Source: a virus (lineage: Duplodnaviria > Heunggongvirae > Uroviricota > Caudoviricetes). Taken from it: 9,382 nucleotides of DNA. This document shows positions 2,125 to 9,257 of the stretch, one piece after another. The stretch's first letter is position 1; every line of letters starts with the position of its first letter. A model generated the notes under the pieces. That model saw only the letters and a list, made by a program, of their open reading frames with translations, made no database searches and was not told where the DNA came from. The DNA lies in IMG/VR virus record IMGVR_UViG_2740892235_000008. One strand, given 5' to 3'. Both the position numbers and the translations under genes were made by a program.

Positions 2125-2612
2125 TAAGCCCCCACGTAATTCCCTGACAGATACCACTCTTCACCCGATACAGCGCGCTTGCTGCTTTTCCGTAAACACC
2201 GCTCACGACGCGCAAGAAAATTGTTTCGCTCTTGCTGGGAGTGGCTTTCACGGAATGCCGCCATCCACACCGTTGCAGCACGACGGTATAAGCCCCTGGA
2301 CTCCAGTTCTTCCGCCTGGCGGGTCAGGCACAAAATCACCCGGGGATCGTTAGTGCCGACATAGAAATTGCGCACAGGTCTGGATTCACGAACTGGTTGC
2401 GGTTCCGGCTCCTGCGGTATCTCAGTCAGCCGCGGGAAATGTCTGCGTGTATCCCCTTCACAACGGTGAGCCACACGCCCACTCTGACGTAACTTGCTTG
2501 CTGACTGCAGAACGCGCTGTCGTGAGTAACCTGCAAAAGCATCCGCAATGTCTCCGGAAGTACACCCCGGATGGGCTTCAATGAATTTCTGAACGTCATT
2601 CAAAAGACTCAT
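2124..2612 (-). CDS. PerC/ANR-family-like regulator with an additional N-terminal domain, about 162 aa
   Basis: ATG 2610-2612 preceded by AGGGGG with about 5 nt spacing (GTG at 2616-2618 is the alternative). C-terminal LESRGLYRRAATVWMAAF...RRERCL matches the remembered PerC/Pch signature (GLWRRAA..W...RR..CL). Stop overlaps the next ATG. Confidence 0.5.
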   Translation of the reverse strand: MSLLNDVQKFIEAHPGCTSGDIADAFAGYSRQRVLQSASKLRQSGRVAHRCEGDTRRHFPRLTEIPQEPEPQPVRESRPVRNFYVGTNDPRVILCLTRQAEELESRGLYRRAATVWMAAFRESHSQQERNNFLARRERCLRKSSKRAVSGEEWYLSGNYVGA

Positions 2613-2614
2613 GA

Positions 2615-3794
2615 TCACCCCCTGAATCCTGCCGGGATCTGGCTGTAGTCCACATTGTCGTAACTGGCTTTGAAGTACGGGTCTTCGCGTTTTTCTGTGT
2701 ACGTGCTGACGGACGGCGATAAGCGCAGGGAAAGCTCATCCCATTTTTCCCGCAGCTTCGACGGGCTGAGCACGTTNNNNNNNNNNATTTGAAGTACGGG
2801 TCTTCGCGTTTTTCGGTGTACGTGCTGACGGACGGCGATAAGCGCAGGGAAAGCTCATCCCATTTTTCCCGCAGCTTCGACGGGCTGAGCACGTTACGGC
2901 ACCAGAACGGATCGCGGCTGACGCGGCTGTACATCTCGCAGATTTGTTTATGAGTACGACCATCCTGCACACACATCAGGCGAATTTCGTTTGCCCAGGC
3001 TGTCCAGTTCGGTTCTTTGGGACGAACCACCTCGCCGTCACATTCGGCAGCCTGCTCGTACAGGGCGATGATTTTTTTCCAGAACCACTGTGCGCAGGTC
3101 AAATCATCCTGCGTCCCCCACTGGCGTTTTTTAGGGCTGAATACAACCGCATCAGGATGGCGAGTTAAAAAATCCTGTTCAGCCGTCTGCGTGTCCGGTT
3201 GCGAAGAGTCCGGACGAGAAGGTTTTTTATCTGACGGATCATGTTTTGATTTTACTGACGGATCCCCGCCAGATTCTGACGGGTGAAAACCCGCTTTTTT
3301 GCCAGATTTCGACGCATCAAATTTTGACGGGTCAGATTTTGATGCGTCAGATTTTGACGGGTCAGAATCTGACAGTTGAGAAAATGCCGCTGCCTGAAGC
3401 TTCGCAACGTTAAGCTGATAAACATTCGACGCATTGCGGTTACCCTGGCGACGCGCCTTACGCGTTAACCAGCCTTCTGCTTCCAGCCGTGCGATAGCCG
3501 TTCTGACGGTACTCATCCCCGCGCCAATCTGGCGTGCAATGGTTTCAATCGATGGCCAGCACACACCTTCGTCATTACTGAAATCAGCCAGGCGGGCCAT
3601 AATTGCCACGCTGGATAATTTCATGCCTGANNNNNNNNNNAGCCAATCTGACGGGCAATGGTTTCAATTGATGGCCAGCACACACCTTCGTCATTACTGA
3701 AATCAGCCAGGCGGGCCATAATTGCCACGCTGGATAATTTCATGCCTGACGCTGCGCAACCATCCCATACATAGCCGGTTAATTTAGTGCTCAT
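2615..3794 (-). CDS. phage replication initiator, O-like (N-terminal wHTH, Ser/Asp/Lys-rich repeat linker, C-terminal domain); spans two scaffold joins with duplicated flanks
   Basis: ATG 3792-3794 with GAGG Shine-Dalgarno 7 nt upstream; translation MSTKLTGYVWDGCAASGMKLSSVAIMARLADFSNDEGVCWPSIETIARQIG... In-frame through segment 2787-3630. True stop TGA at 2615-2617 found by hand translation (…DPYFKASYDNVDYSQIPAGFRG). The ORF-track frame after the 2777-2786 gap is an artefact. Real gene length is shorter than the coordinate span because 2672-2776 / 2789-2896 and 3520-3630 / 3641-3751 are duplicated overlaps. Confidence 0.6.
2777..2786. other. assembly gap (10 N)
   Basis: Run of n characters; about 105 bp either side are near-identical direct repeats. 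Confidence 0.95.
3224..3377. repeat. iteron-like tandem array (15-bp period; consensus CAGATTTTGACGNGT; 5 contiguous copies at 3303-3377 plus degenerate copies at 3224-3284); candidate replication origin inside the initiator gene
   Basis: Direct reading: cagatttcgacgcat / caaattttgacgggt / cagattttgatgcgt / cagattttgacgggt / cagaatctgacagtt, plus cagattctgacgggt at 3270-3284 and two CTGACGGATC-containing units at 3224-3265. They encode the SDxSK pentapeptide repeats of the linker. Lambda ori iterons lie inside O in the same way (established knowledge). Confidence 0.5.
3631..3640. other. assembly gap (10 N)
   Basis: Run of n characters; 3520-3630 and 3641-3751 are near-identical with 3 SNPs. 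Confidence 0.95.
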
Positions 3795-3803
3795 GACCGA
3801 CCT

Positions 3804-4142
3804 CTATTTCCCTGAATTTACGACGAAACTGTTCGAGCGGGCTGAAGCACTCATGCTCATAGCCTTCGCGGAGGTAGATAACACGTTGTGTTTCCGGCTC
3901 CCAACGAATGACTCTGACGGGCACTCCGTAGTGATCTTTGAACCAGCGGTTAACTTGTCGCAAAGGACTGTCTCCTTCTGCCGGTTGAAATCACCCACAG
4001 CCCACTCTGCAAAGCTGTGGGTTACAATTTCCCTGTCACCTGGTACATTTACTGCATAGCAATACTCCACCTTCGCTTTTCCACCCGGTACAGGAAGCGC
4101 AATCAGTTGCGAGCGACGGTAGTGTGTTGTTAAACTGTTCAT
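3804..4142 (-). CDS. hypothetical protein (112 aa) between cII-like and replication genes
   Basis: ORF-track ORF; ATG 4140-4142 overlaps the upstream stop as ATGA; stop is 9 nt before the replication gene ATG. Same strand as the whole operon. No recognisable family. Confidence 0.4.
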
Positions 4143-4690
4143 GCGTTAGTTTCTCCACAGTCACGACACGCCACGGCGCCCGGAGCTGCACACTCGCGGG
4201 CGTCACTACTTTCTGAAACGCAAAAGATTTTGTAGACCAGTGCTGCATGCTCCTGCAGCTTCGAAATTGAGAGGTACAGCTCATCGTTAATTGCTGTCTT
4301 CTCATGCGGTTCCACTACACCGTCTTCAATTGCTGAACGAATCTGTTTTGAATAACTGCCGATCTGTTCAATGACCTCCAGCAGGCGTTGGTTGATATCG
4401 GCGTTGTCCACATCCTCGACATCAGGAAGAGACACAAAGACGCCATTTGCAGACTGCGCCACAGCGTCAGCAATGAAGTGAGTTCCACCAGCACGTTGCA
4501 AAATCATTGCCCATCCCAGCGGGAAAATCTGATCGCCATCGGCACGAAGGCGGTTAAATAATGCGTTCTCTGTTACATCCAGCCAGTCAGCAGCTTCAGC
4601 GTACCCCCCCGGCAACGCTGCGATAGTTTTTCTGACAGCTTTCACGTACCACTCAGGCTGTTTTTCTACTTTCCAGTGATGCTTACCCAC
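4139..4690 (-). CDS. cII-like early regulator (HTH-containing, 183 aa)
   Basis: GTG start 4688-4690 preceded by a perfect AGGAGG with 6 nt spacing. Sits immediately downstream of the cro-like gene. Remote cII-like HTH pattern in …[19 protein letters not shown]. Function inferred from position and weak pattern. Confidence 0.55.
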
Positions 4691-4943
4691 GGTTCACCTC
4701 CTGTTCCTGTGGTTTAAACCCATTCTGGTTTTGGCTAGATTGAAAACGTGCCGGATAAAGAATCTGCATTTCGCTGACTTCACCCTTAAAAAAATTGGCT
4801 AAACGTTCTGCAAGCTCGATAGATGGAATCTGCTCCAGCCTCTCAATACGACTCAACGTCGCTGGATTGACTTGAACACCCGCAGCAACATGCTGCAAAG
4901 TGAAACCATGCGCCTTACGCACATTTCGTAATGGTGATTGCAT
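4683..4943 (-). CDS. cro: Cro-like XRE-family HTH repressor (86 aa), immunity module 1
   Basis: ATG 4941-4943 with GGAGGG Shine-Dalgarno; translation MQSPLRNVRKAHGFTLQHVAAGVQVNPATLSRIERLEQIPSIELAERLANFF is a typical HTH_3 fold. Divergent from the cI-like gene across a 97-bp operator region. Confidence 0.7.
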   Translation of the reverse strand: MQSPLRNVRKAHGFTLQHVAAGVQVNPATLSRIERLEQIPSIELAERLANFFKGEVSEMQILYPARFQSSQNQNGFKPQEQEVNRG

Positions 4944-5040
4944 ATGCCCTCCAAATATTGCGCGTTATGCATGTTATTTCACGCAATTATTTTGCGCAAG
5001 TTGATTTGCTTATCACGCAATAAAGAAATGTAATAAACGC
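4944..5040. promoter_or_regulatory. divergent promoter/operator region (OR/PR/PRM-like) of immunity module 1
   Basis: Between divergent cro-like and cI-like starts. Contains dyad TTGCTTATCACGCAA (5006-5020), a weaker TTGCGCGTTATGCAT (4958-4972) and the palindrome CGCAATTATTTTGCG (4982-4996). Possible PR toward cro: -35 TTGCGC, -10 TAACAT read on the minus strand. Confidence 0.55.
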
Positions 5041-5733
5041 ATGAACATAGGAAACCGAGTCAGACAACTTCGCCAAGCGAAGAACATGAAAATCGCCGAT
5101 CTCGCTGAAGCGATAGGAGTAGATGCGGCGAACATCTCGCGCTTAGAAACGGGTAAGCAAAAACAATTTACCGAACAAACACTGAGTAATATTGCCAGGA
5201 GCTTAGGTGTTGATATTGCTGATCTCTTTACCTCTGCCCACAAAAGTAATACTGTATATAAAAACAGTAATAATGAGGATGTTGCGCAGGTGAAGGATGT
5301 GTTCCGTATTGAAATGCTGGATATCAGTGCCAGTGCGGGAAATGGCCTTATCCAGGGCGGTGATGTCATTGATGTGATTCATGCCATCGAATACAGAACT
5401 GATAATGCTGTATCAATGTTCGGCGGACGACCAGCCAATCACATCAAAGTTATCAACGTTCGTGGGGACAGTATGTGTCCAACCATTGAGCCCGGAGATC
5501 TCATCTTCGTTGATGTCAGCATCAATCAGTTTGATGGTGATGGTATATATGTCTTTGGTTTTGATGACAAAATATACGTTAAAAGACTTCAAATGATTCC
5601 TGACAAACTGCTGGTGATTTCTGATAACCAGATTTACCGTGAATGGGGAATTACTAGCGAAAACGAACACCGATTCATGGTCTTTGGAAAGGTCTTAATC
5701 AGTCAGTCGCAAACCCTTAAGAGACATAATTAA
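5041..5733 (+). CDS. cI: CI-like phage repressor (N-terminal XRE HTH, C-terminal S24/LexA-type autopeptidase), 230 aa
   Basis: Translation has HTH (VRQLRQAKNMKIADLAEAIGVDAANISRLETGK), a candidate Ala-Gly cleavage site (ASAGNG) and the S24 catalytic motifs GDSM … KRL. Stop TAA 5731-5733. Confidence 0.9.
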   Translation: MNIGNRVRQLRQAKNMKIADLAEAIGVDAANISRLETGKQKQFTEQTLSNIARSLGVDIADLFTSAHKSNTVYKNSNNEDVAQVKDVFRIEMLDISASAGNGLIQGGDVIDVIHAIEYRTDNAVSMFGGRPANHIKVINVRGDSMCPTIEPGDLIFVDVSINQFDGDGIYVFGFDDKIYVKRLQMIPDKLLVISDNQIYREWGITSENEHRFMVFGKVLISQSQTLKRHN

Positions 5734-5742
5734 CCTCAATAT

Positions 5743-5765
5743 CCCATCCATCGGCCACCGAAAGG
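5743..5765 (+). terminator. rho-independent terminator downstream of cI-1
   Basis: GGCCACC-GAAA-GGTGGC hairpin followed by TTTTT (ggccaccgaaaggtggcttttt). Confidence 0.7.
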
Positions 5766-5777
5766 TGGCTTTTTATT

Positions 5778-5828
5778 ACCTATAAATTTGCATATCTCGC
5801 AAATATCACTTGCATATCTCGCAATTTA
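5778..5828 (+). promoter_or_regulatory. candidate OL/pL of module 1: two 15-bp direct repeats TTGCATATCTCGCAA (5778-5792, 5800-5814) overlapping a sigma70-like promoter (-35 TTGCAT 5800-5805, 17-bp spacer, -10 TATCTT 5823-5828)
   Basis: The repeats share the TTGC-N7-GCAA dyad and 13 of 15 bases with the OR site 5006-5020, consistent with the same repressor binding at both. Spacing of the two copies is 22 bp. Confidence 0.45.
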
Positions 5829-5920
5829 ATTTTATCTTTTGTTCCAGACCAACTACAGGATTACAACAAAATCTGGTTGCAACACGGTGCATGTGTCGTA
5901 AGCAGTCAGTAAATGTCAAA

Positions 5921-5985
5921 AACGAACAGGCAGGACGCCCACGAAGTAGCCGCCGGTGGCGTATGAATGACCGGATGATTCGTTA
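5921..5985 (+). ncRNA. conserved 65-nt structured element, copy 1 (candidate cis-acting leader RNA, nut/put-like, or small RNA)
   Basis: Same 65-nt sequence as 8186-8250 except in a 20-nt core. Outer inverted repeat AACGAA…TTCGTT. Inner stem CCGGT(N12)ACCGG here versus CCTGG(N12)CCAGG in copy 2, i.e. two compensatory base-pair changes preserve the stem. Confidence 0.4.
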
Positions 5986-6009
5986 AATACTATGTGTAAG
6001 AGAGCGCAA

Positions 6010-6213
6010 ATGAACCGTTATTTCACATGCTCGTTTTGTGGCGCAAACGAGCTGCAGGCAAAAAAAATCATCGCCAAAGGCGGAAAAGATGAAGTTGCTA
6101 TCTGCTCTGAGTGCGTAGTCTTGTGTGTCGGGGCATTAATCAATAGCAGCACAACTATTCGGTTCACACCAAATGAGAATGCGCCTTTAGATGCGCGGAA
6201 ATCTGGAGGTTAA
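6010..6213 (+). CDS. small ClpX-type C4 zinc-finger (ClpX N-terminal ZBD-like) protein, about 67 aa
   Basis: Translation MNRYFTCSFCGANELQAKKIIAKGGKDEVAICSECVVLC… matches the remembered ClpX N-terminal zinc-binding signature ([33 protein letters not shown]). Purine-rich AAGAGAG 5 nt before ATG 6010; the ORF-track ATG at 5992 has no Shine-Dalgarno. Confidence 0.55.
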   Translation: MNRYFTCSFCGANELQAKKIIAKGGKDEVAICSECVVLCVGALINSSTTIRFTPNENAPLDARKSGG

Positions 6214-6221
6214 AGAACAAA

Positions 6222-6497
6222 ATGAAAGTCCAGATTTTAAACAATAGTGGTGAAGTCGTTTGGTCATACGACATAGCCGCTCCTGTAGATCAGAGCGGCG
6301 ATAGCTGGACCAATGGGAAACATCAGATTATGGCTGGAGTTGTATTCTCTTTACGCCGTGCTTTGGAACAGGCTGAAGTCTTTCCATCAGACCCTGAATG
6401 GAAATGGCCTTTTTCTATTTGTCCAAATTCGGAGAGTACATTTCAGAAAATTGGTCAGAAAGTCGCACTCGAAGAGCATCAGCCAACTGTTTCCTGA
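6222..6497 (+). CDS. hypothetical protein (91 aa)
   Basis: ORF-track ORF. GGAGG at 6205-6209 but with 12-nt spacing to the ATG. Its 3' 83 nt overlap the convergent ORF at 6415-6660, so the true extent of one of the two is uncertain. Confidence 0.4.
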   Translation: MKVQILNNSGEVVWSYDIAAPVDQSGDSWTNGKHQIMAGVVFSLRRALEQAEVFPSDPEWKWPFSICPNSESTFQKIGQKVALEEHQPTVS

Positions 6498-6660
6498 TTT
6501 TTTCAGGTAACTCGTCGGCATCGCAGAAACAACAACGCTCGATCATGTTGAAAGCCGATTCGTAGAACTGTTTCTGCTGAGTGTCGCTGAGACAGGAAAA
6601 GAGCGACGTTACGATGATTTTATTAATTGCATTATCAAGTTCTTTTTCATCAAAAGTCAT
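6415..6660 (-). CDS. hypothetical protein (81 aa), convergent to the preceding ORFs
   Basis: ATG 6658-6660 with AAGGA Shine-Dalgarno about 7 nt upstream (revcomp of 6661-6680 is atacataaaaggaaaatcaa). Protein-like composition with a CCFCD motif. Confidence 0.45.
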   Translation of the reverse strand: MTFDEKELDNAINKIIVTSLFSCLSDTQQKQFYESAFNMIERCCFCDADELPEKIRKQLADALRVRLSDQFSEMYSPNLDK

Positions 6661-6689
6661 TTGATTTTCCTTTTATGTATACGGGCTTA

Positions 6690-6803
6690 AAAGGATACCA
6701 CCGAGCCTGAAGTGGTGAAAAGACAGGCACATAACAGCTAAGTATTTTCAACCAGAGAGAATCCTTAGCGTTGTGGTGAATGCGGCTCAGCGCACGCGGG
6801 TTA
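6690..6803. repeat. conserved right-flank element, copy A (6725-6803 identical to 8930-9008; 6690-6724 similar with SNPs to 8896-8929)
   Basis: Direct comparison of the two stretches; copy A is truncated by the gap at 6804. Confidence 0.6.
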
Positions 6804-6813
6804 NNNNNNNNNN
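6804..6813. other. assembly gap (10 N)
   Basis: Run of n characters. Confidence 0.95.
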
Positions 6814-7128
6814 TTCCAGCAGGCGTTGGTTGATATCGGCGTTGTCCACATCCTCGACGTCAGGAAGAGACACAAAGACGCCATTTGCAGACTGCGCCAC
6901 TGCGTCAGCAATGAAGTGAGTTCCACCAGCACGTTGCAAAATCATTGCCCATCCCAGCGGGAAAATCTGATCGCCATCGGCACGAAGGCGGTTAAATAAT
7001 GCGTTCTCTGTTACATCCAGCCAGTCAGCTGCTTCAGCGTAACCACCCGGCAACTTTGCGATAGTTTTTCTGACAGCTTTCACGTACCACTCAGGCTGTT
7101 TTTCTACTTTCCAGTGATGCTTACCCAC
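6814..7128 (-). CDS. cII-like regulator, second copy, N-terminal part (3' end cut by gap)
   Basis: GTG 7126-7128 with GAGG Shine-Dalgarno 6 nt upstream; translation nearly identical to 4139-4690 (one A to K change seen). 6814-7128 repeats 4376-4690. Confidence 0.55.
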
Positions 7129-7165
7129 GGTTAGCCTCATCGTTCTGTGGTTTCTGTTAATCGAT

Positions 7166-7366
7166 TTATCCATTAGATTTTTCATAAAGCTCAGGTTTAA
7201 ATGGCAACCGTCCGCAAGTTCTATATGCAGCTTCTGCTGCACGTCCTTTTGGAATTAACTGGCCCGGACGGTTTCGCCACTGATAAACGGCTTCAGTTGT
7301 TATGCCGAAAAAAGCAGCAACTTTCTCAATACTGCCGAAGTAGCTTTCGATATCGTCAGTTGTCAT
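7166..7366 (-). CDS. cro: Cro-like small HTH protein (66 aa), immunity module 2
   Basis: ATG 7364-7366 preceded by TTTGGAGGGCGT, the same leader as cro-1. Translation …SIEKVAAFFGITTEAVYQWRNRPGQLIPKGRAAEAAY is a Cro/YdaS-type HTH pattern. Divergent from cI-2. Confidence 0.65.
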   Translation of the reverse strand: MTTDDIESYFGSIEKVAAFFGITTEAVYQWRNRPGQLIPKGRAAEAAYRTCGRLPFKPELYEKSNG

Positions 7367-7463
7367 ACGCCCTCCAAACTAAGTTTTGTTAGATGCTAAT
7401 TACAAATCTATCTTTGGTCAATAAAAACTAAGATTACTTAGCAATTAAAGAAATGGTGCTCCT
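7367..7463. promoter_or_regulatory. divergent promoter/operator region of immunity module 2
   Basis: Contains 14-bp dyads CTAAGTTTTGTTAG (7379-7392) and CTAAGATTACTTAG (7428-7441); consensus CTAAG-N4-sTTAG, unrelated to the module 1 operator motif. Confidence 0.5.
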
Positions 7464-8090
7464 ATGGAAACGGTTGGTCAGCGTATAAAAGCTCTGAGAA
7501 GAGTTACCAGAACGTCCCAGAAAGAATTGGGTAAATTTTGTGGAGTAAGCGACGTTGCTGTGGGGTACTGGGAGAAAGACATCAATACCCCTGGCGGGGA
7601 GGCACTTTCGAAATTAGCGAAGTTCTTCAATACGTCAATAGATTACATTCTTTATGGTGCTGAGTTTGAAGGCAAACTCGTCACAAACATGCGCAGAGTT
7701 CCTGTAATATCGTGGGTTCAGGCTGGGCAGTTTACTGAGTGCAGGGCAGCAGAAGTGTTTAGTGAAGTGGACAAGTGGGTAGATACATCATTAAAGGTTG
7801 GTGATAACTCATTTGCATTAGAGGTTAAAGGTGACTCCATGACTAACCCTAATGGCCTCCCAACAATACCAGAAGGCGCAACAGTGATTGTAGATCCAGA
7901 TGCAGAACCTCGTCATGGAAAAATAGTCATCGCTCGACTTGATGGAACAAACGAAGCTACAGTAAAAAAATTAGTCATCGATGGCCCTCAAAAGTTTTTA
8001 GTGCCATTAAATCCTCGGTATCCCAACATCCCTATCAATGGTAATTGCCTTATCATTGGTGTAGTCAAAGGAGTTCAATACGAACTCTAA
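7464..8090 (+). CDS. cI: CI-like phage repressor 2 (HTH plus S24 autopeptidase), 208 aa
   Basis: Translation has HTH (IKALRRVTRTSQKELGKFCGVSDVAVGYWEKD) and the S24 motifs GDSM … KKL. Sequence is unrelated to cI-1 apart from fold-level motifs. Confidence 0.9.
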   Translation: METVGQRIKALRRVTRTSQKELGKFCGVSDVAVGYWEKDINTPGGEALSKLAKFFNTSIDYILYGAEFEGKLVTNMRRVPVISWVQAGQFTECRAAEVFSEVDKWVDTSLKVGDNSFALEVKGDSMTNPNGLPTIPEGATVIVDPDAEPRHGKIVIARLDGTNEATVKKLVIDGPQKFLVPLNPRYPNIPINGNCLIIGVVKGVQYEL

Positions 8091-8112
8091 GATCTCTCTT
8101 CTCTAACTAAGG

Positions 8113-8145
8113 CACCGAACTAAGAAAAGTTTGGTGTTTTCTCTT
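8113..8145 (+). terminator. rho-independent terminator downstream of cI-2
   Basis: CACCGAAC-(8-nt loop)-GTTTGGTG, an 8-bp stem with one G-U pair, followed by TTTTCTCTT. Confidence 0.55.
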
Positions 8146-8172
8146 GCCATGATAACTAAGTTAAGTTAGATT
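8144..8172 (+). promoter_or_regulatory. candidate OL/pL of module 2: -35 TTGCCA (8144-8149), 17-bp spacer containing operator CTAAGTTAAGTTAG (8156-8169), -10 TAGATT (8167-8172)
   Basis: The operator matches the module 2 OR dyad consensus; promoter hexamers read directly. Confidence 0.4.
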
Positions 8173-8185
8173 TTATATCAAAGAT

Positions 8186-8250
8186 AACGAACAGGCAGGA
8201 CGCCCACGAAGTAGCCGCCTGGGGCATATGAAGTCCAGGATGATTCGTTA
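8186..8250 (+). ncRNA. conserved 65-nt structured element, copy 2
   Basis: See copy 1; starts only about 6-8 nt after the predicted pL2 transcription start. Confidence 0.4.
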
Positions 8251-8254
8251 GCAA

Positions 8255-8279
8255 CAAAAAAGCGCCCTACAGGACGCTT
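8255..8279 (-). terminator. rho-independent terminator for the convergent cargo gene (possibly bidirectional)
   Basis: On the minus-strand RNA: AGCGUCC-UGUA-GGGCGCU (7-bp stem, one G-U) followed by UUUUUU. On the plus strand the same hairpin has one C-A mismatch. Confidence 0.65.
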
Positions 8280-8317
8280 AGCTCTTTAACAATCAGGATA
8301 TCCACAACAGTAGTAAT

Positions 8318-8809
8318 CTACAGATTGCCGTTAAGTTTTCTGGACAACTCCTCAATGGATGGAGGCGATACGTAATCCGGATTTTTATTCATCAGAAACT
8401 TATTTTCACAGTGGAGGCACCTGCTTTTATGAAAAAGCTCATCTTCGCTAACCGGGAATGGTTGAAGTATCGATACTATCTTTTGTCCAAAACATTTTGG
8501 GCAAAGATGCATGGTTATGCTGCCACCGTTCACGATTACCTCCTTCGAGTATACAAAAGTACCCGACTCAAGTTGGTTAAGGATATAGCCTTCCGTCTGA
8601 GCCTCAAAGTTTTCGAATTCTGCAATTTTAGCTTTGAGAGAAGCATTTATTTCTTGATAAGAGCCCACCAGTTCAACGAGAGACACGCATTCGCGCTGAA
8701 TAGACGCAAGCTTTGAGTTCAGCTCACCAATAGCCGCATTTACTTCAGCTTGAGTTTTTGCCTCGTTCATTAGTTTTGCAATCTGGGCTGTTTCACGAAT
8801 AGCCGTCAT
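8318..8809 (-). CDS. hypothetical cargo protein, about 163 aa: N-terminal predicted coiled coil, C-terminal CxxC…CxxC zinc-ribbon-like motif
   Basis: In-frame ATG 8807-8809 (MTAIRETAQIAKLMNEAKTQAEV…) is the first start downstream of the shared flank; the ORF-track start at 9097 would read through the shared flank. The Shine-Dalgarno is weak and a later ATG at 8768-8770 (MNEAK) is possible. C-terminal …HLCPKCFGQKIV…CLHCENKF…; stop 8318-8320; own terminator at 8255-8279. Confidence 0.5.
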   Translation of the reverse strand: MTAIRETAQIAKLMNEAKTQAEVNAAIGELNSKLASIQRECVSLVELVGSYQEINASLKAKIAEFENFEAQTEGYILNQLESGTFVYSKEVIVNGGSITMHLCPKCFGQKIVSILQPFPVSEDELFHKSRCLHCENKFLMNKNPDYVSPPSIEELSRKLNGNL

Positions 8810-8847
8810 TGCTGCCGTTAATTCAGCGATCACATTGAATACTCTTA

Positions 8848-8901
8848 TTGTTGTTGGGGATATCCAGATTAACCGAATCCTTGTTGTTGGGGAATAACCA
8901 G
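8848..8901. repeat. two about 20-bp direct repeats TTGTTGTTGGGGA(T/A)A(T/A)CCAG (8848-8867, 8881-8901) upstream of the cargo gene start
   Basis: Direct reading. Lies in the putative promoter region of the minus-strand gene, 33-bp period. Confidence 0.5.
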
Positions 8902-9008
8902 GTCCACCTCGCCTGATGTGGCTAAAAGCAGGCACATAACAGCTAAGTATTTTCAACCAGAGAGAATCCTTAGCGTTGTGGTGAATGCGGCTCAGCGCAC
9001 GCGGGTTA
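8896..9008. repeat. conserved right-flank element, copy B
   Basis: 8930-9008 identical to 6725-6803; preceding about 34 bp similar with SNPs. Confidence 0.6.
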
Positions 9009-9120
9009 AGGTTGAGGCTGACAGTCGACCTTCTGTGGATACCCACCCGCCTGGTGTGCAACCTTCGCCAGGCACCGGGAGGCACCCGGCACCACAACTT
9101 TATGCTGTGTGTAGTCCTGG

Positions 9121-9166
9121 CGGTACCAGTTTGTACCCTTGCTTCCGGCTGGTACCGTCCTTTTTT
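9121..9166 (+). terminator. large hairpin plus T-tract (CGGTACCAG-N19-CTGGTACCG then TCCTTTTTT); candidate plus-strand terminator
   Basis: 9-bp perfect inverted repeat followed by a T6 run. An allelic copy at 9258-9304 keeps the stem and carries a CTCTTTTT tract. Confidence 0.5.
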
Positions 9167-9247
9167 GCAAAACAGAGAAGAGCATCACCGGACGACGGGC
9201 TCATAACCCAATCCATCCGGGCGGCTGCCACCGCAGGTGTTCTTCTC

Positions 9248-9257
9248 NNNNNNNNNN
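9248..9257. other. assembly gap (10 N)
   Basis: Run of n characters; 9119-9247 and 9258-9382 are near-identical. Confidence 0.95.

Follow-up and report, generated by a model that had tools for sequence, protein, structure and literature searches.

A widespread, covarying three-way-junction RNA in the early leaders of lambdoid prophages and other phages

Two copies of a 65-nucleotide (nt) element lie at positions 5921-5985 and 8186-8250 of a 9,382-nt stretch of viral DNA (Duplodnaviria; Heunggongvirae; Uroviricota; Caudoviricetes; IMG/VR record IMGVR_UViG_2740892235_000008), hereafter called the window. Both are found downstream of predicted sigma70-type promoters adjoining CI-type repressor genes. 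On comparative sequence evidence, with covariation giving strong support, the element is a real structured RNA of wide distribution that folds into a three-way junction. The best reading of its function, to which slightly less than an even chance is given, is that it would act in cis as a leader RNA modifying the transcription elongation complex, functionally similar to the put RNAs of phage HK022 and belonging to a new structural family.

The repeat pair, first pointed out in a preliminary description of the window, is real. The copies are direct repeats (repeat finder family D10) identical at 58 of 65 positions (89%); they agree over 34 nt at the 5' end and 14 nt at the 3' end, and all seven differences fall in a 22-nt core. 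Four of the seven make up two compensatory pairs, as had been described: G5955-C5972 is replaced by U-A and U5957-A5970 by G-C, both sides changing at once and the stem of 5 base pairs (bp) being kept (CCGGU/ACCGG in copy 1, CCUGG/CCAGG in copy 2). The other three differences are located in the loop. Identity runs from AACGAA to one base past TTCGTT (the A at 5985 and 8250), an outer inverted repeat common to both copies, and the flanks are unrelated. Because two sequences are weak evidence and single-sequence folds are unremarkable, either 65-nt copy folding no better than shuffles on either strand (z of +0.13 and -1.04), the case for a structure rests on homologues.

A 14-mer taken from the junction retrieved 120 viral contigs, and ~85 true full copies were recognized among 110 distinct matches. 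The alignment, comprising 85 instances of which 81 are distinct, was folded unconstrained with RNAalifold. A covariance model built from the homologues, R1, was used for the searches of loci and phages, and the host range was drawn from phage, plasmid and Escherichia coli collections. The consensus is a ~64-nt three-way junction constituted of a closing helix P1 of 6 bp, a hairpin P2 (GGC/GCC) with a loop of 5-7 nt, and a hairpin P3 of 5 bp with a 12-nt loop. RNAalifold reports double changes at 11 of the 14 pairs; all six P1 pairs and all five P3 pairs have changed on both sides, with 93-95% of cells paired. The covariation score is 0.506, versus 0.145 for shuffles (none of 500 reaching 0.506), and slid partners score at most 0.112. 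Thus, P1 occurs as AACGAA/UUCGUU, GCGAAC/GUUCGC, GUCAUC/GAUGAC, CCACC/GGUGG, AGGAAC/GUUCCU and GUUCGG/CCGAAC, whereas P2 is invariant in the 81-sequence set and has one pair flipped (GGG/CCC) in a podovirus copy. This extensive covariation of P1 and P3 among homologues bears out the earlier proposal of selection on RNA structure. The 5-bp stem and outer repeat on which that proposal was built are both real but form only part of the fold, a three-way junction with a third hairpin.

Copy 1 matches R1 at 5921-5984 on the + strand (91.5 bits, E 7e-27), with P1 at 5921-5926/5979-5984, P2 at 5929-5931/5937-5939 around the loop AGGAC, the junction segment J2/3 at 5940-5952 (CACGAAGUAGCCG), P3 at 5953-5957/5970-5974 enclosing the loop 5958-5969 (GGCGUAUGAAUG), and J3/1 at 5975-5978 (AUGA). 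The same RNA is found at copy 2 on the + strand, at 8186-8249 (90 bits, E 2e-26), where P1 occupies 8186-8191/8244-8249, P2 8194-8196/8202-8204, J2/3 8205-8217, P3 8218-8222/8235-8239 (CCUGG/CCAGG) with its loop at 8223-8234, and J3/1 8240-8243.

The best conserved parts of the RNA are the unpaired ones, ~30 unpaired nt being nearly invariant from Escherichia to Aeromonas. J2/3 has the consensus CCCACGAAGUAGC, the junction sequence CCCAYG..GUAGC being almost invariant. It is kept when instances are chosen without regard to J2/3 itself, the only variants being CACGAAUGUAGC, CACGAGAGUAGC and CAYGUAAGUAGC. The P3 loop RGC-AUAYGAA is likewise almost invariant, J3/1 is AUGA, and GGA is present in every variant of the P2 loop (AGGAC, AGGAU, AGGAA, AUGGA and AAGGAAA). 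A tentative 3-bp pseudoknot may pair the last nucleotides of J2/3 (GCY) with the first ones of the P3 loop (RGC), as GCU/AGC versus GCC/GGC; GCU stands with AGC in eight sequences and GCC with AGC in one (Fisher p = 3e-4, no phylogenetic correction being applied).

A coding reading of the element was rejected, as only one of the three frames is ever open, in 38 of the 81 sequences, and insertions or deletions of 1 and 2 nt separate homologues. Neither of the findings named beforehand as contrary to a structured RNA, non-compensatory stem changes in homologues and a location in a conserved coding frame, was obtained. A reading as a transfer RNA (tRNA) or transfer-messenger RNA was rejected as well, ARAGORN detecting 0 genes in the window. 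Against Rfam 15, both copies remain without a match when the whole window is scanned at E<=1, and so does the region 5840-6010 at E<=10; this absence is no proof of novelty, because HK022 put is also absent from Rfam. In the annotated records examined, those of SfII, SfV, ZF40, pAEv1818, PSTCR5, mEp237, SEN34, SPN3UB, Minorna, E. coli RM10466 and E. coli K-12, no feature is placed on the element, and the feature-reporting BLAST rows show 'none' under the 65-nt match. The accessible literature on the sequence, on put-like or N-independent antitermination and on ymfJ/cohE holds no description of it, although an earlier mention is possible.

The window is made of eight assembly pieces placed end to end and joined by seven runs of exactly 10 N (891-900, 1141-1150, 1504-1513, 2777-2786, 3631-3640, 6804-6813 and 9248-9257). 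The pieces have overlapping near-identical ends (repeat families D1-D8 and D12), and the many near-identical internal duplications of the window are due to this concatenation. Feature adjacency across the joins is therefore not physical. As the spacer 6804-6813 separates the contig carrying copy 1 (3641-6803) from that carrying copy 2 (6814-9247), the copies come from different prophages, and the two immunity modules are not genomic neighbours. In the completely sequenced E. coli RM10466, they correspond at 99-100% identity to two different prophages located ~810 kilobases (kb) apart, one integrated with intE/xisE (locus L003) and the other at the argU tRNA gene with intD (locus L129).

Both modules display a lambdoid immunity layout in which cro and cII-like genes are divergent, leftward of the repressor, whereas a CI repressor with helix-turn-helix (HTH) and S24 domains, a terminator, operators, a sigma70 promoter, the element and the early-left genes to xis/int succeed each other rightward. 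In module 1, the CI-type repressor gene (5041-5733, + strand; Pfam HTH plus Peptidase_S24; 98.9% identity to SfII cI) is followed by a terminator detected by terminator scan (5753-5770, +) and by the early-left promoter (pL) region (5788-5838), where operator-like repeats TTGCATATCTCGCAA (5788-5802 and 5810-5824, +; repeat family D18) accompany a + strand promoter with TTGCAT at 5810-5815, a 17-nt spacer and TATCTT at 5833-5838. Its predicted start is at ~5845, ~75 nt before the RNA. In loci L031 and L049, the homologous promoter stands immediately before the RNA, its -10 hexamer, identical to that of module 1, ending ~20 nt 5' of hairpin P2. In module 2, a CI/LexA-type repressor gene (7464-8090, +; Pfam HTH_3 plus Peptidase_S24; annotated as a LexA family protein in RM10466) precedes a pL-type promoter at 8144-8172 (+; TTGCCA, a 17-nt spacer, TAGATT) with a predicted start at ~8179, the RNA beginning at ~+7. 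The first gene after copy 1 (5992-6213, +) encodes a 73-amino-acid (aa) protein made up almost entirely of a C4 zinc finger of the ClpX type (Pfam zf-C4_ClpX, E 1e-10); this protein may be a phage modulator of ClpX or of another zinc-finger partner. No open reading frame (ORF) is found for ~700 nt after copy 2.

The element is not restricted to these two prophages. BLAST homologues were found in Shigella phages SfII, SfV and SfIV, Salmonella ST64B, Pectobacterium ZF40, Aeromonas pAEv1818, and Yersinia, Pantoea, Klebsiella and Citrobacter phages; serotype-converting Shigella phages and phages of plant pathogens are among the carriers. Among lytic phages, the T5-like Providencia phages carry it in the terminal-repeat pre-early region, ahead of A1/A2-type DNA-transfer genes, and the KP34-like podovirus Minorna at its early end (57.7 bits with R1); by analogy with T5 and T7, we take both sites to be regions that the host polymerase transcribes when infection begins. 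With the 65-nt query, the element was detected in about a quarter of the complete E. coli genomes (1386/5426), in at most three copies. In E. coli K-12 MG1655, an unannotated copy (74.5 bits with R1) is located in prophage e14, in the spacer between ymfK (cohE) and ymfJ, on the - strand at ~1,202,109-1,202,179 of NC_000913.3 (locus L181 6110-6180), directly after a TTGACA-16-CATAAT promoter. The RNA, together with a hairpin and a BoxA, was also observed on Salmonella IncFIB-IncFIC conjugative plasmids of ~145 kb (for instance NZ_CP130107.1; locus L177 4001-4105), ~1.2 kb from the gene for the B subunit of a subtilase AB5 toxin; this copy is presumably a prophage fragment.

Each of 100 loci contains exactly one R1 match, and no copy on the side of the early-right promoter (pR) was detected with R1 in these loci or in SfII, SfV, ZF40 and pAEv1818. 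The upstream same-strand ORF is a CI repressor with HTH and S24 domains in 71 of 99 contexts, and most of the other upstream ORFs resemble exclusion-type morons inserted between cI and pL. Just 5' of the RNA there is usually a good sigma70 promoter, and palindromic operators overlap it. A promoter could be scored in 55 of 98 contexts; in 23 of these the distance from the -10 hexamer to P1 is 8-11 nt and in 12 it is 15-19 nt, a spacing that puts P1 at ~+2 to +12 of the predicted transcript and to which copy 2 conforms (promoter 8144-8172, RNA from 8186). The location directly after the early-left promoter given in the preliminary description is confirmed, predicted promoters preceding both copies and recurring in other loci. 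Relatives such as Stx2a_1447 and mEp460 have the same cI, pL and first ~75 nt of leader as module 1 without the element, which therefore behaves as a self-contained mosaic module.

Downstream of the RNA, no fixed protein partner is apparent, the first ORFs falling into 49 clusters among 106. The start codon lies ~10-25 nt after the RNA in copy 1 and in e14, and the downstream ORFs of the window encode the ClpX-type zinc-finger protein and a protein without Pfam match. No N gene is annotated in any carrier examined, RM10466, SfII, SfV, ZF40, pAEv1818, SEN34 and SPN3UB included; the lack of an N gene after either copy, noted previously, stands on annotation and Pfam only, N proteins being diverse. 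The carriers include the N-less lambdoid phages SfII, SfV, ST64B, ZF40 and e14. Whether lambdoid pL, T5-like pre-early or podovirus early, the regions that contain the copies examined are all ones where transcription by host polymerase is expected.

A BoxA sequence (GCTCTTTAACA) is found at 8281-8291 on the + strand, 31 nt after copy 2, as a perfect match to the gamma-proteobacterial consensus GYTCTTTAANA (PMC5725501). The BoxA 12-mer GCTCTTTAACAA occurs once in the window (8281-8292) versus 0.04 expected. More generally, of 104 distinct contexts, 16 have a BoxA in the 300 nt that follow the RNA, always on the transcribed strand; the opposite strand and the upstream regions have none, and ~0.06 would be expected. 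These sites fall into at least four arrangements, one of them with BoxA 6 nt after P1 in a T5-like phage; the loci with a BoxA downstream of the RNA include L007, L017, L028, L044, L053, L063, L103, L119 and L157. BoxA is usually preceded by a hairpin AAAAAAGCGCCCnnnnGGACGCTT, and the combination of both looks like an rrn-style antitermination signal in the pL leaders of N-less prophages. The hairpin between copy 2 and BoxA (8260-8279), which can form on either strand, has a folding energy of -11.5 kcal/mol on the - strand, where U6 follows, and of -7.5 on the + strand. Because it is more stable on the - strand and has a U6 run after it there, it resembles a terminator serving the convergent gene 8318-9097.

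The module 2 pL transcript must cross this hairpin and then ~700 nt of untranslated RNA antisense to a moron. Further on, an STnc100-like RNA with a DicF-like 3' end, its 3' hairpin being weakly similar to DicF, was identified at 8945-9168 on the + strand (Rfam RF02076, 40.3 bits versus a gathering score of 47), ended by a + strand terminator with its stem at 9119-9160 and U6 at 9161-9166 (-23.3 kcal/mol, z = -3.3). This RNA also occurs as a partial copy at 6719-6803 of the window, at 7846-8069 of L129, at 7881-8103 of L003 and at 5193-5414 (- strand) of the K-12 locus L181, and it lies 0.7-0.9 kb downstream of the element in both modules and in e14. Its strong terminator precedes yfdP...xis-int in the complete genomes and xisE-intE in e14, where it is located at ~1,201,195-1,201,240 of NC_000913.3. 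The STnc100-like RNA is overlain by a 'frameshifted hypothetical protein' in RefSeq and by the coding sequence ymfH in K-12, both of which are probably mis-annotations of an RNA gene. The e14 genes ymfJ, ymfH, xisE and intE of K-12 are all induced after DNA damage (PMC11228462), a pattern that would be expected if the pL transcript reads through. As an indicator of rut sites, the C-over-G skew downstream of copy 2 was uninformative.

According to the mechanism we propose, the ~64-nt RNA would be made as the first part of the early-left transcript on loss of the repressor or on infection. As it emerges, its invariant surface would bind a conserved host machine, the likeliest being the transcription elongation complex itself. 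That the partner is a very conserved host component is suggested by the near-invariance of ~30 unpaired nt in phages that have no common neighbouring protein. By this binding, the polymerase that transcribed the element would acquire resistance to intrinsic and Rho-dependent termination. The modified enzyme could pass untranslated leaders, antisense morons and the terminator at the end of the STnc100/DicF-like RNA, and so transcribe the recombination, xis and int genes. In some phages, the RNA may work together with a BoxA/Nus-factor signal. An antitermination role is plausible because of the same-strand BoxA, the strong terminator before xis/int and the placement in regions that host polymerase is expected to transcribe. 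Of the nut-like or put-like antitermination RNA suggested in the preliminary description, the role thus remains plausible, but not the membership of either family. A bolder and somewhat less probable claim is that the element stands for a second class of antiterminator RNAs that modify polymerase, without structural relation to put and much more widespread (~25% of complete E. coli genomes and many phages of Enterobacterales and Aeromonas). Temperate and virulent phages would have it in common, at the head of the transcripts made by host polymerase, as a means of overcoming Rho and intrinsic termination; such an RNA might act alone or by nucleating a Nus/BoxA complex.

Several observations weigh against an antitermination RNA of this kind. 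BoxA is absent from 88 of the 104 contexts and from the region after copy 1, and xisE/intE of e14 could have a promoter of their own. An enrichment of terminators downstream of the element is unsupported, the pL-side frequency being no higher than that of the pR side: a lenient scan detected co-oriented terminators on the pL side in 49 of 88 loci (0.35 per kb) and on the pR side in 37 of 63 (0.32 per kb). With a strict scan, a co-oriented terminator was found in only 24 of 91 loci, and many loci of the CCACC class have no terminator at all. HK022 put is found in both early operons, whereas the element is located on the pL side only; in HK639, only a putL-like RNA is annotated. Pair counts give ~11 GU versus ~30 AC cells, 17 of the AC cells coming from one class at the last P3 pair, and because this count does not decide the strand, the strand assignment rests on the orientation of promoter and BoxA. 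Finally, a second leader module with a boxB-like hairpin, present in many other carriers, leaves room for a protein-dependent, nut-like system.

In such a system, the element would be the RNA half of a nut-like site, the junction taking the role of boxB in a protein-RNA complex that modifies polymerase; a phage antiterminator with its gene elsewhere, or a host factor (NusA, S4 or SuhB, for example), could supply the protein part. This explanation, which we consider unlikely, would account for the same-strand BoxA just downstream in 16 of 104 contexts, and for its distance of 6 nt from P1 in the T5-like phage, which resembles the boxB-boxA spacing of rrn leaders. The second leader module with its covarying hairpin, whose GAAAGA loop in Aeromonas resembles boxB, and the small conserved ORF that follows it would fit as well. 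However, no protein gene is consistently adjacent to the element, the carriers include unrelated phage types without obvious common early protein, BoxA is missing from most contexts, and the copies of the window have neither the second module nor the small ORF. Just as improbable is a trans-acting early RNA, processed or short-terminated, that would serve as a decoy for a host RNA-binding protein (for instance CsrA, through the GGA loop) or for defence, or as an anti-defence RNA, and that would be made first simply through promoter proximity. Anti-host functions are common in phage regions near pL and in pre-early regions. GGA is fixed in the P2 loop, the other loop bases varying, and the RNA of module 2 with the following hairpin could give a transcript of ~100 nt. 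Yet there is no conserved 3' end, the sequel ranging from an immediate start codon to another RNA module, and on the + strand the hairpin behind copy 2 has little stability and no U tract. The RNA has one good GGA site only, whereas CsrA sponges carry many, and a trans-acting function would leave the strict 5'-end position and the linkage to BoxA unexplained.

Lower chances are given to a 5'-terminal element that would protect the early-left mRNA from 5'-end-dependent decay by RNase E/RppH, or would act in translation by arranging how ribosomes load onto its first gene. The RNA begins within a few nt of the predicted start in many loci, and a start codon follows ~10-25 nt after copy 1 and the e14 copy, but any stable hairpin would suffice for such a stabilization, whereas here ~30 unpaired nt are nearly invariant across genera. 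Moreover, the distance and sequence to the first gene vary, no gene is found for ~700 nt in module 2, and copy 1 lies ~75 nt from its predicted start. A riboswitch-like sensor, in which the junction would be an aptamer for a metabolite or an ion tuning early-left expression, appears slightly less probable again. An aptamer-like three-way junction with invariant junction and loops, a possible loop-junction pseudoknot and the position in a 5' leader speak for it, but no conserved expression platform is found: the sequences after P1 are unrelated, without recurring terminator or sequestered Shine-Dalgarno sequence, and the downstream genes belong to no single pathway. Most strongly disfavoured is an element acting as DNA (a protein-binding site, a cruciform or a recombination hotspot), or a chance resemblance. 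The mosaic behaviour of the module, with sharp recombination boundaries at the P1 ends, would be compatible with a function at the DNA level, whereas the covariation of two separate stems at every position around fixed intervening sequences and the constant orientation relative to early promoter and BoxA are not what it would predict; the recovery of so many true copies with a single 14-mer further argues against it and against chance.

The second conserved leader module was observed in loci L008 (3062-3125), L056, L014, L024 and ~40 others, and is absent from the window. It is carried by many members of the CCACC and GUCAUC classes, and in L025, L054 and L069 it stands upstream of the RNA. 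Its sequence, UUAACGCGCAGYAGGU...AACGUUCCGC (AACGUUCCG), is accompanied by a covarying 4-bp hairpin with the variants GCCU/GGGC, GCCG/CGGC and GCCA/UGGC and with the loop GGCGAYAA, or GAAAGA in Aeromonas phages. No Rfam match was obtained for this module. A conserved ORF of 38-46 aa (MIDFARKPxRQQAVxLN..LCYxLAQKGxP) directly follows it, as in L056 (8663), L024 (8702), L014 (2632), L050 (9024), L055 and L058.

Elsewhere in the window, four tandem 15-nt iteron-like repeats of the CAGATTTTGACGGGT type are found at 3303-3377, inside an O-like replication gene (ORF 2596-3624, - strand), and probably represent the phage origin. They are also the cause of an Rfam match to mir-5880, which was dismissed as spurious.

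To our knowledge, phage control of transcription elongation by RNA only has for thirty years been represented by essentially one family, constituted of HK022 put and a few relatives. The present element has a different, very well conserved fold in the genomic position of put. A polymerase-modifying action would account for the expression of recombination, excision and integration genes in the many N-less lambdoid prophages, despite intervening terminators and antisense morons, and would give synthetic biology a compact new part; were the RNA to act in this way alone, it would be a categorically new RNA family. Should its function be different, it would still be among the most conserved unassigned RNAs of enterobacterial prophages. 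The e14 copy makes the question testable in K-12, where the operon is switched on by SOS induction (PMC11228462).

Among known systems, C4 of P1/P7, the CI RNA of P4, IsrK and DicF are, like the element, small structured RNAs in or near the immunity regions of enterobacterial prophages, and a DicF/STnc100-like RNA is even present in the same operon. The Rfam models of these four RNAs do not match the element at E<=10. Unlike them, it is located downstream of a repressed early promoter, is not lysogen-expressed and has no evident antisense target. EAR, in Bacillus eps operons, and RARE, in the Salmonella mgtCBR leader, are leader RNAs that shield long operons from termination without a dedicated phage protein. 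The element differs from both in sequence, structure, host and context, neither of them is phage-borne in enterobacteria, and no Rfam family matches it.

With the nut sites of lambda and P22, the element shares its location in the pL leader, and with the boxB-boxA-boxC leaders of rrn operons the order of a structured RNA followed by BoxA, at copy 2 and in the 16 of 104 contexts described above. In contrast to nut, no GNRA-type boxB hairpin and no N gene are found at either copy, and the structured part is a 64-nt three-way junction instead of a 15-nt hairpin.

The closest parallel among known systems is provided by HK022 putL/putR and the putL-like RNA of HK639. In HK022 put, ~70 nt fold into two stem-loops, stem I followed by stem II, arranged as a V and not joined by a closing helix (PMC9378689), whereas the element is a three-way junction closed by the 6-bp helix P1. 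HK022-type put RNAs are further characterized by terminator read-through in cis that RNA polymerase beta' zinc-binding-domain mutations block. Homology was rejected, as a BLAST-short comparison of both copies with the HK022 immunity region returned only chance words. With R1, no match was obtained at HK022 putL/putR (L004) or anywhere in HK639, including its annotated putL-like RNA, which is clearly of the HK022 type. Both put and the element have the strings GGAUGA and GGCA-AUG, in a different order and without statistical support. In the HK639 record, an 'M3-like RNA' is also annotated after the cII-like gene, in the pR operon (L130 37910-37969). The element belongs to neither the put nor the nut family, since defining features of both were sought in it and not found. 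It nevertheless resembles put in being a structured RNA of ~65-70 nt situated just 3' of pL in N-less lambdoid phages. HK022 putL starts at +2/+3 of its transcript (PMC9378689), and the element often begins within the first 10 nt of the predicted one; as for put, it has no dedicated adjacent protein and is proposed to act in cis on the polymerase that makes it.

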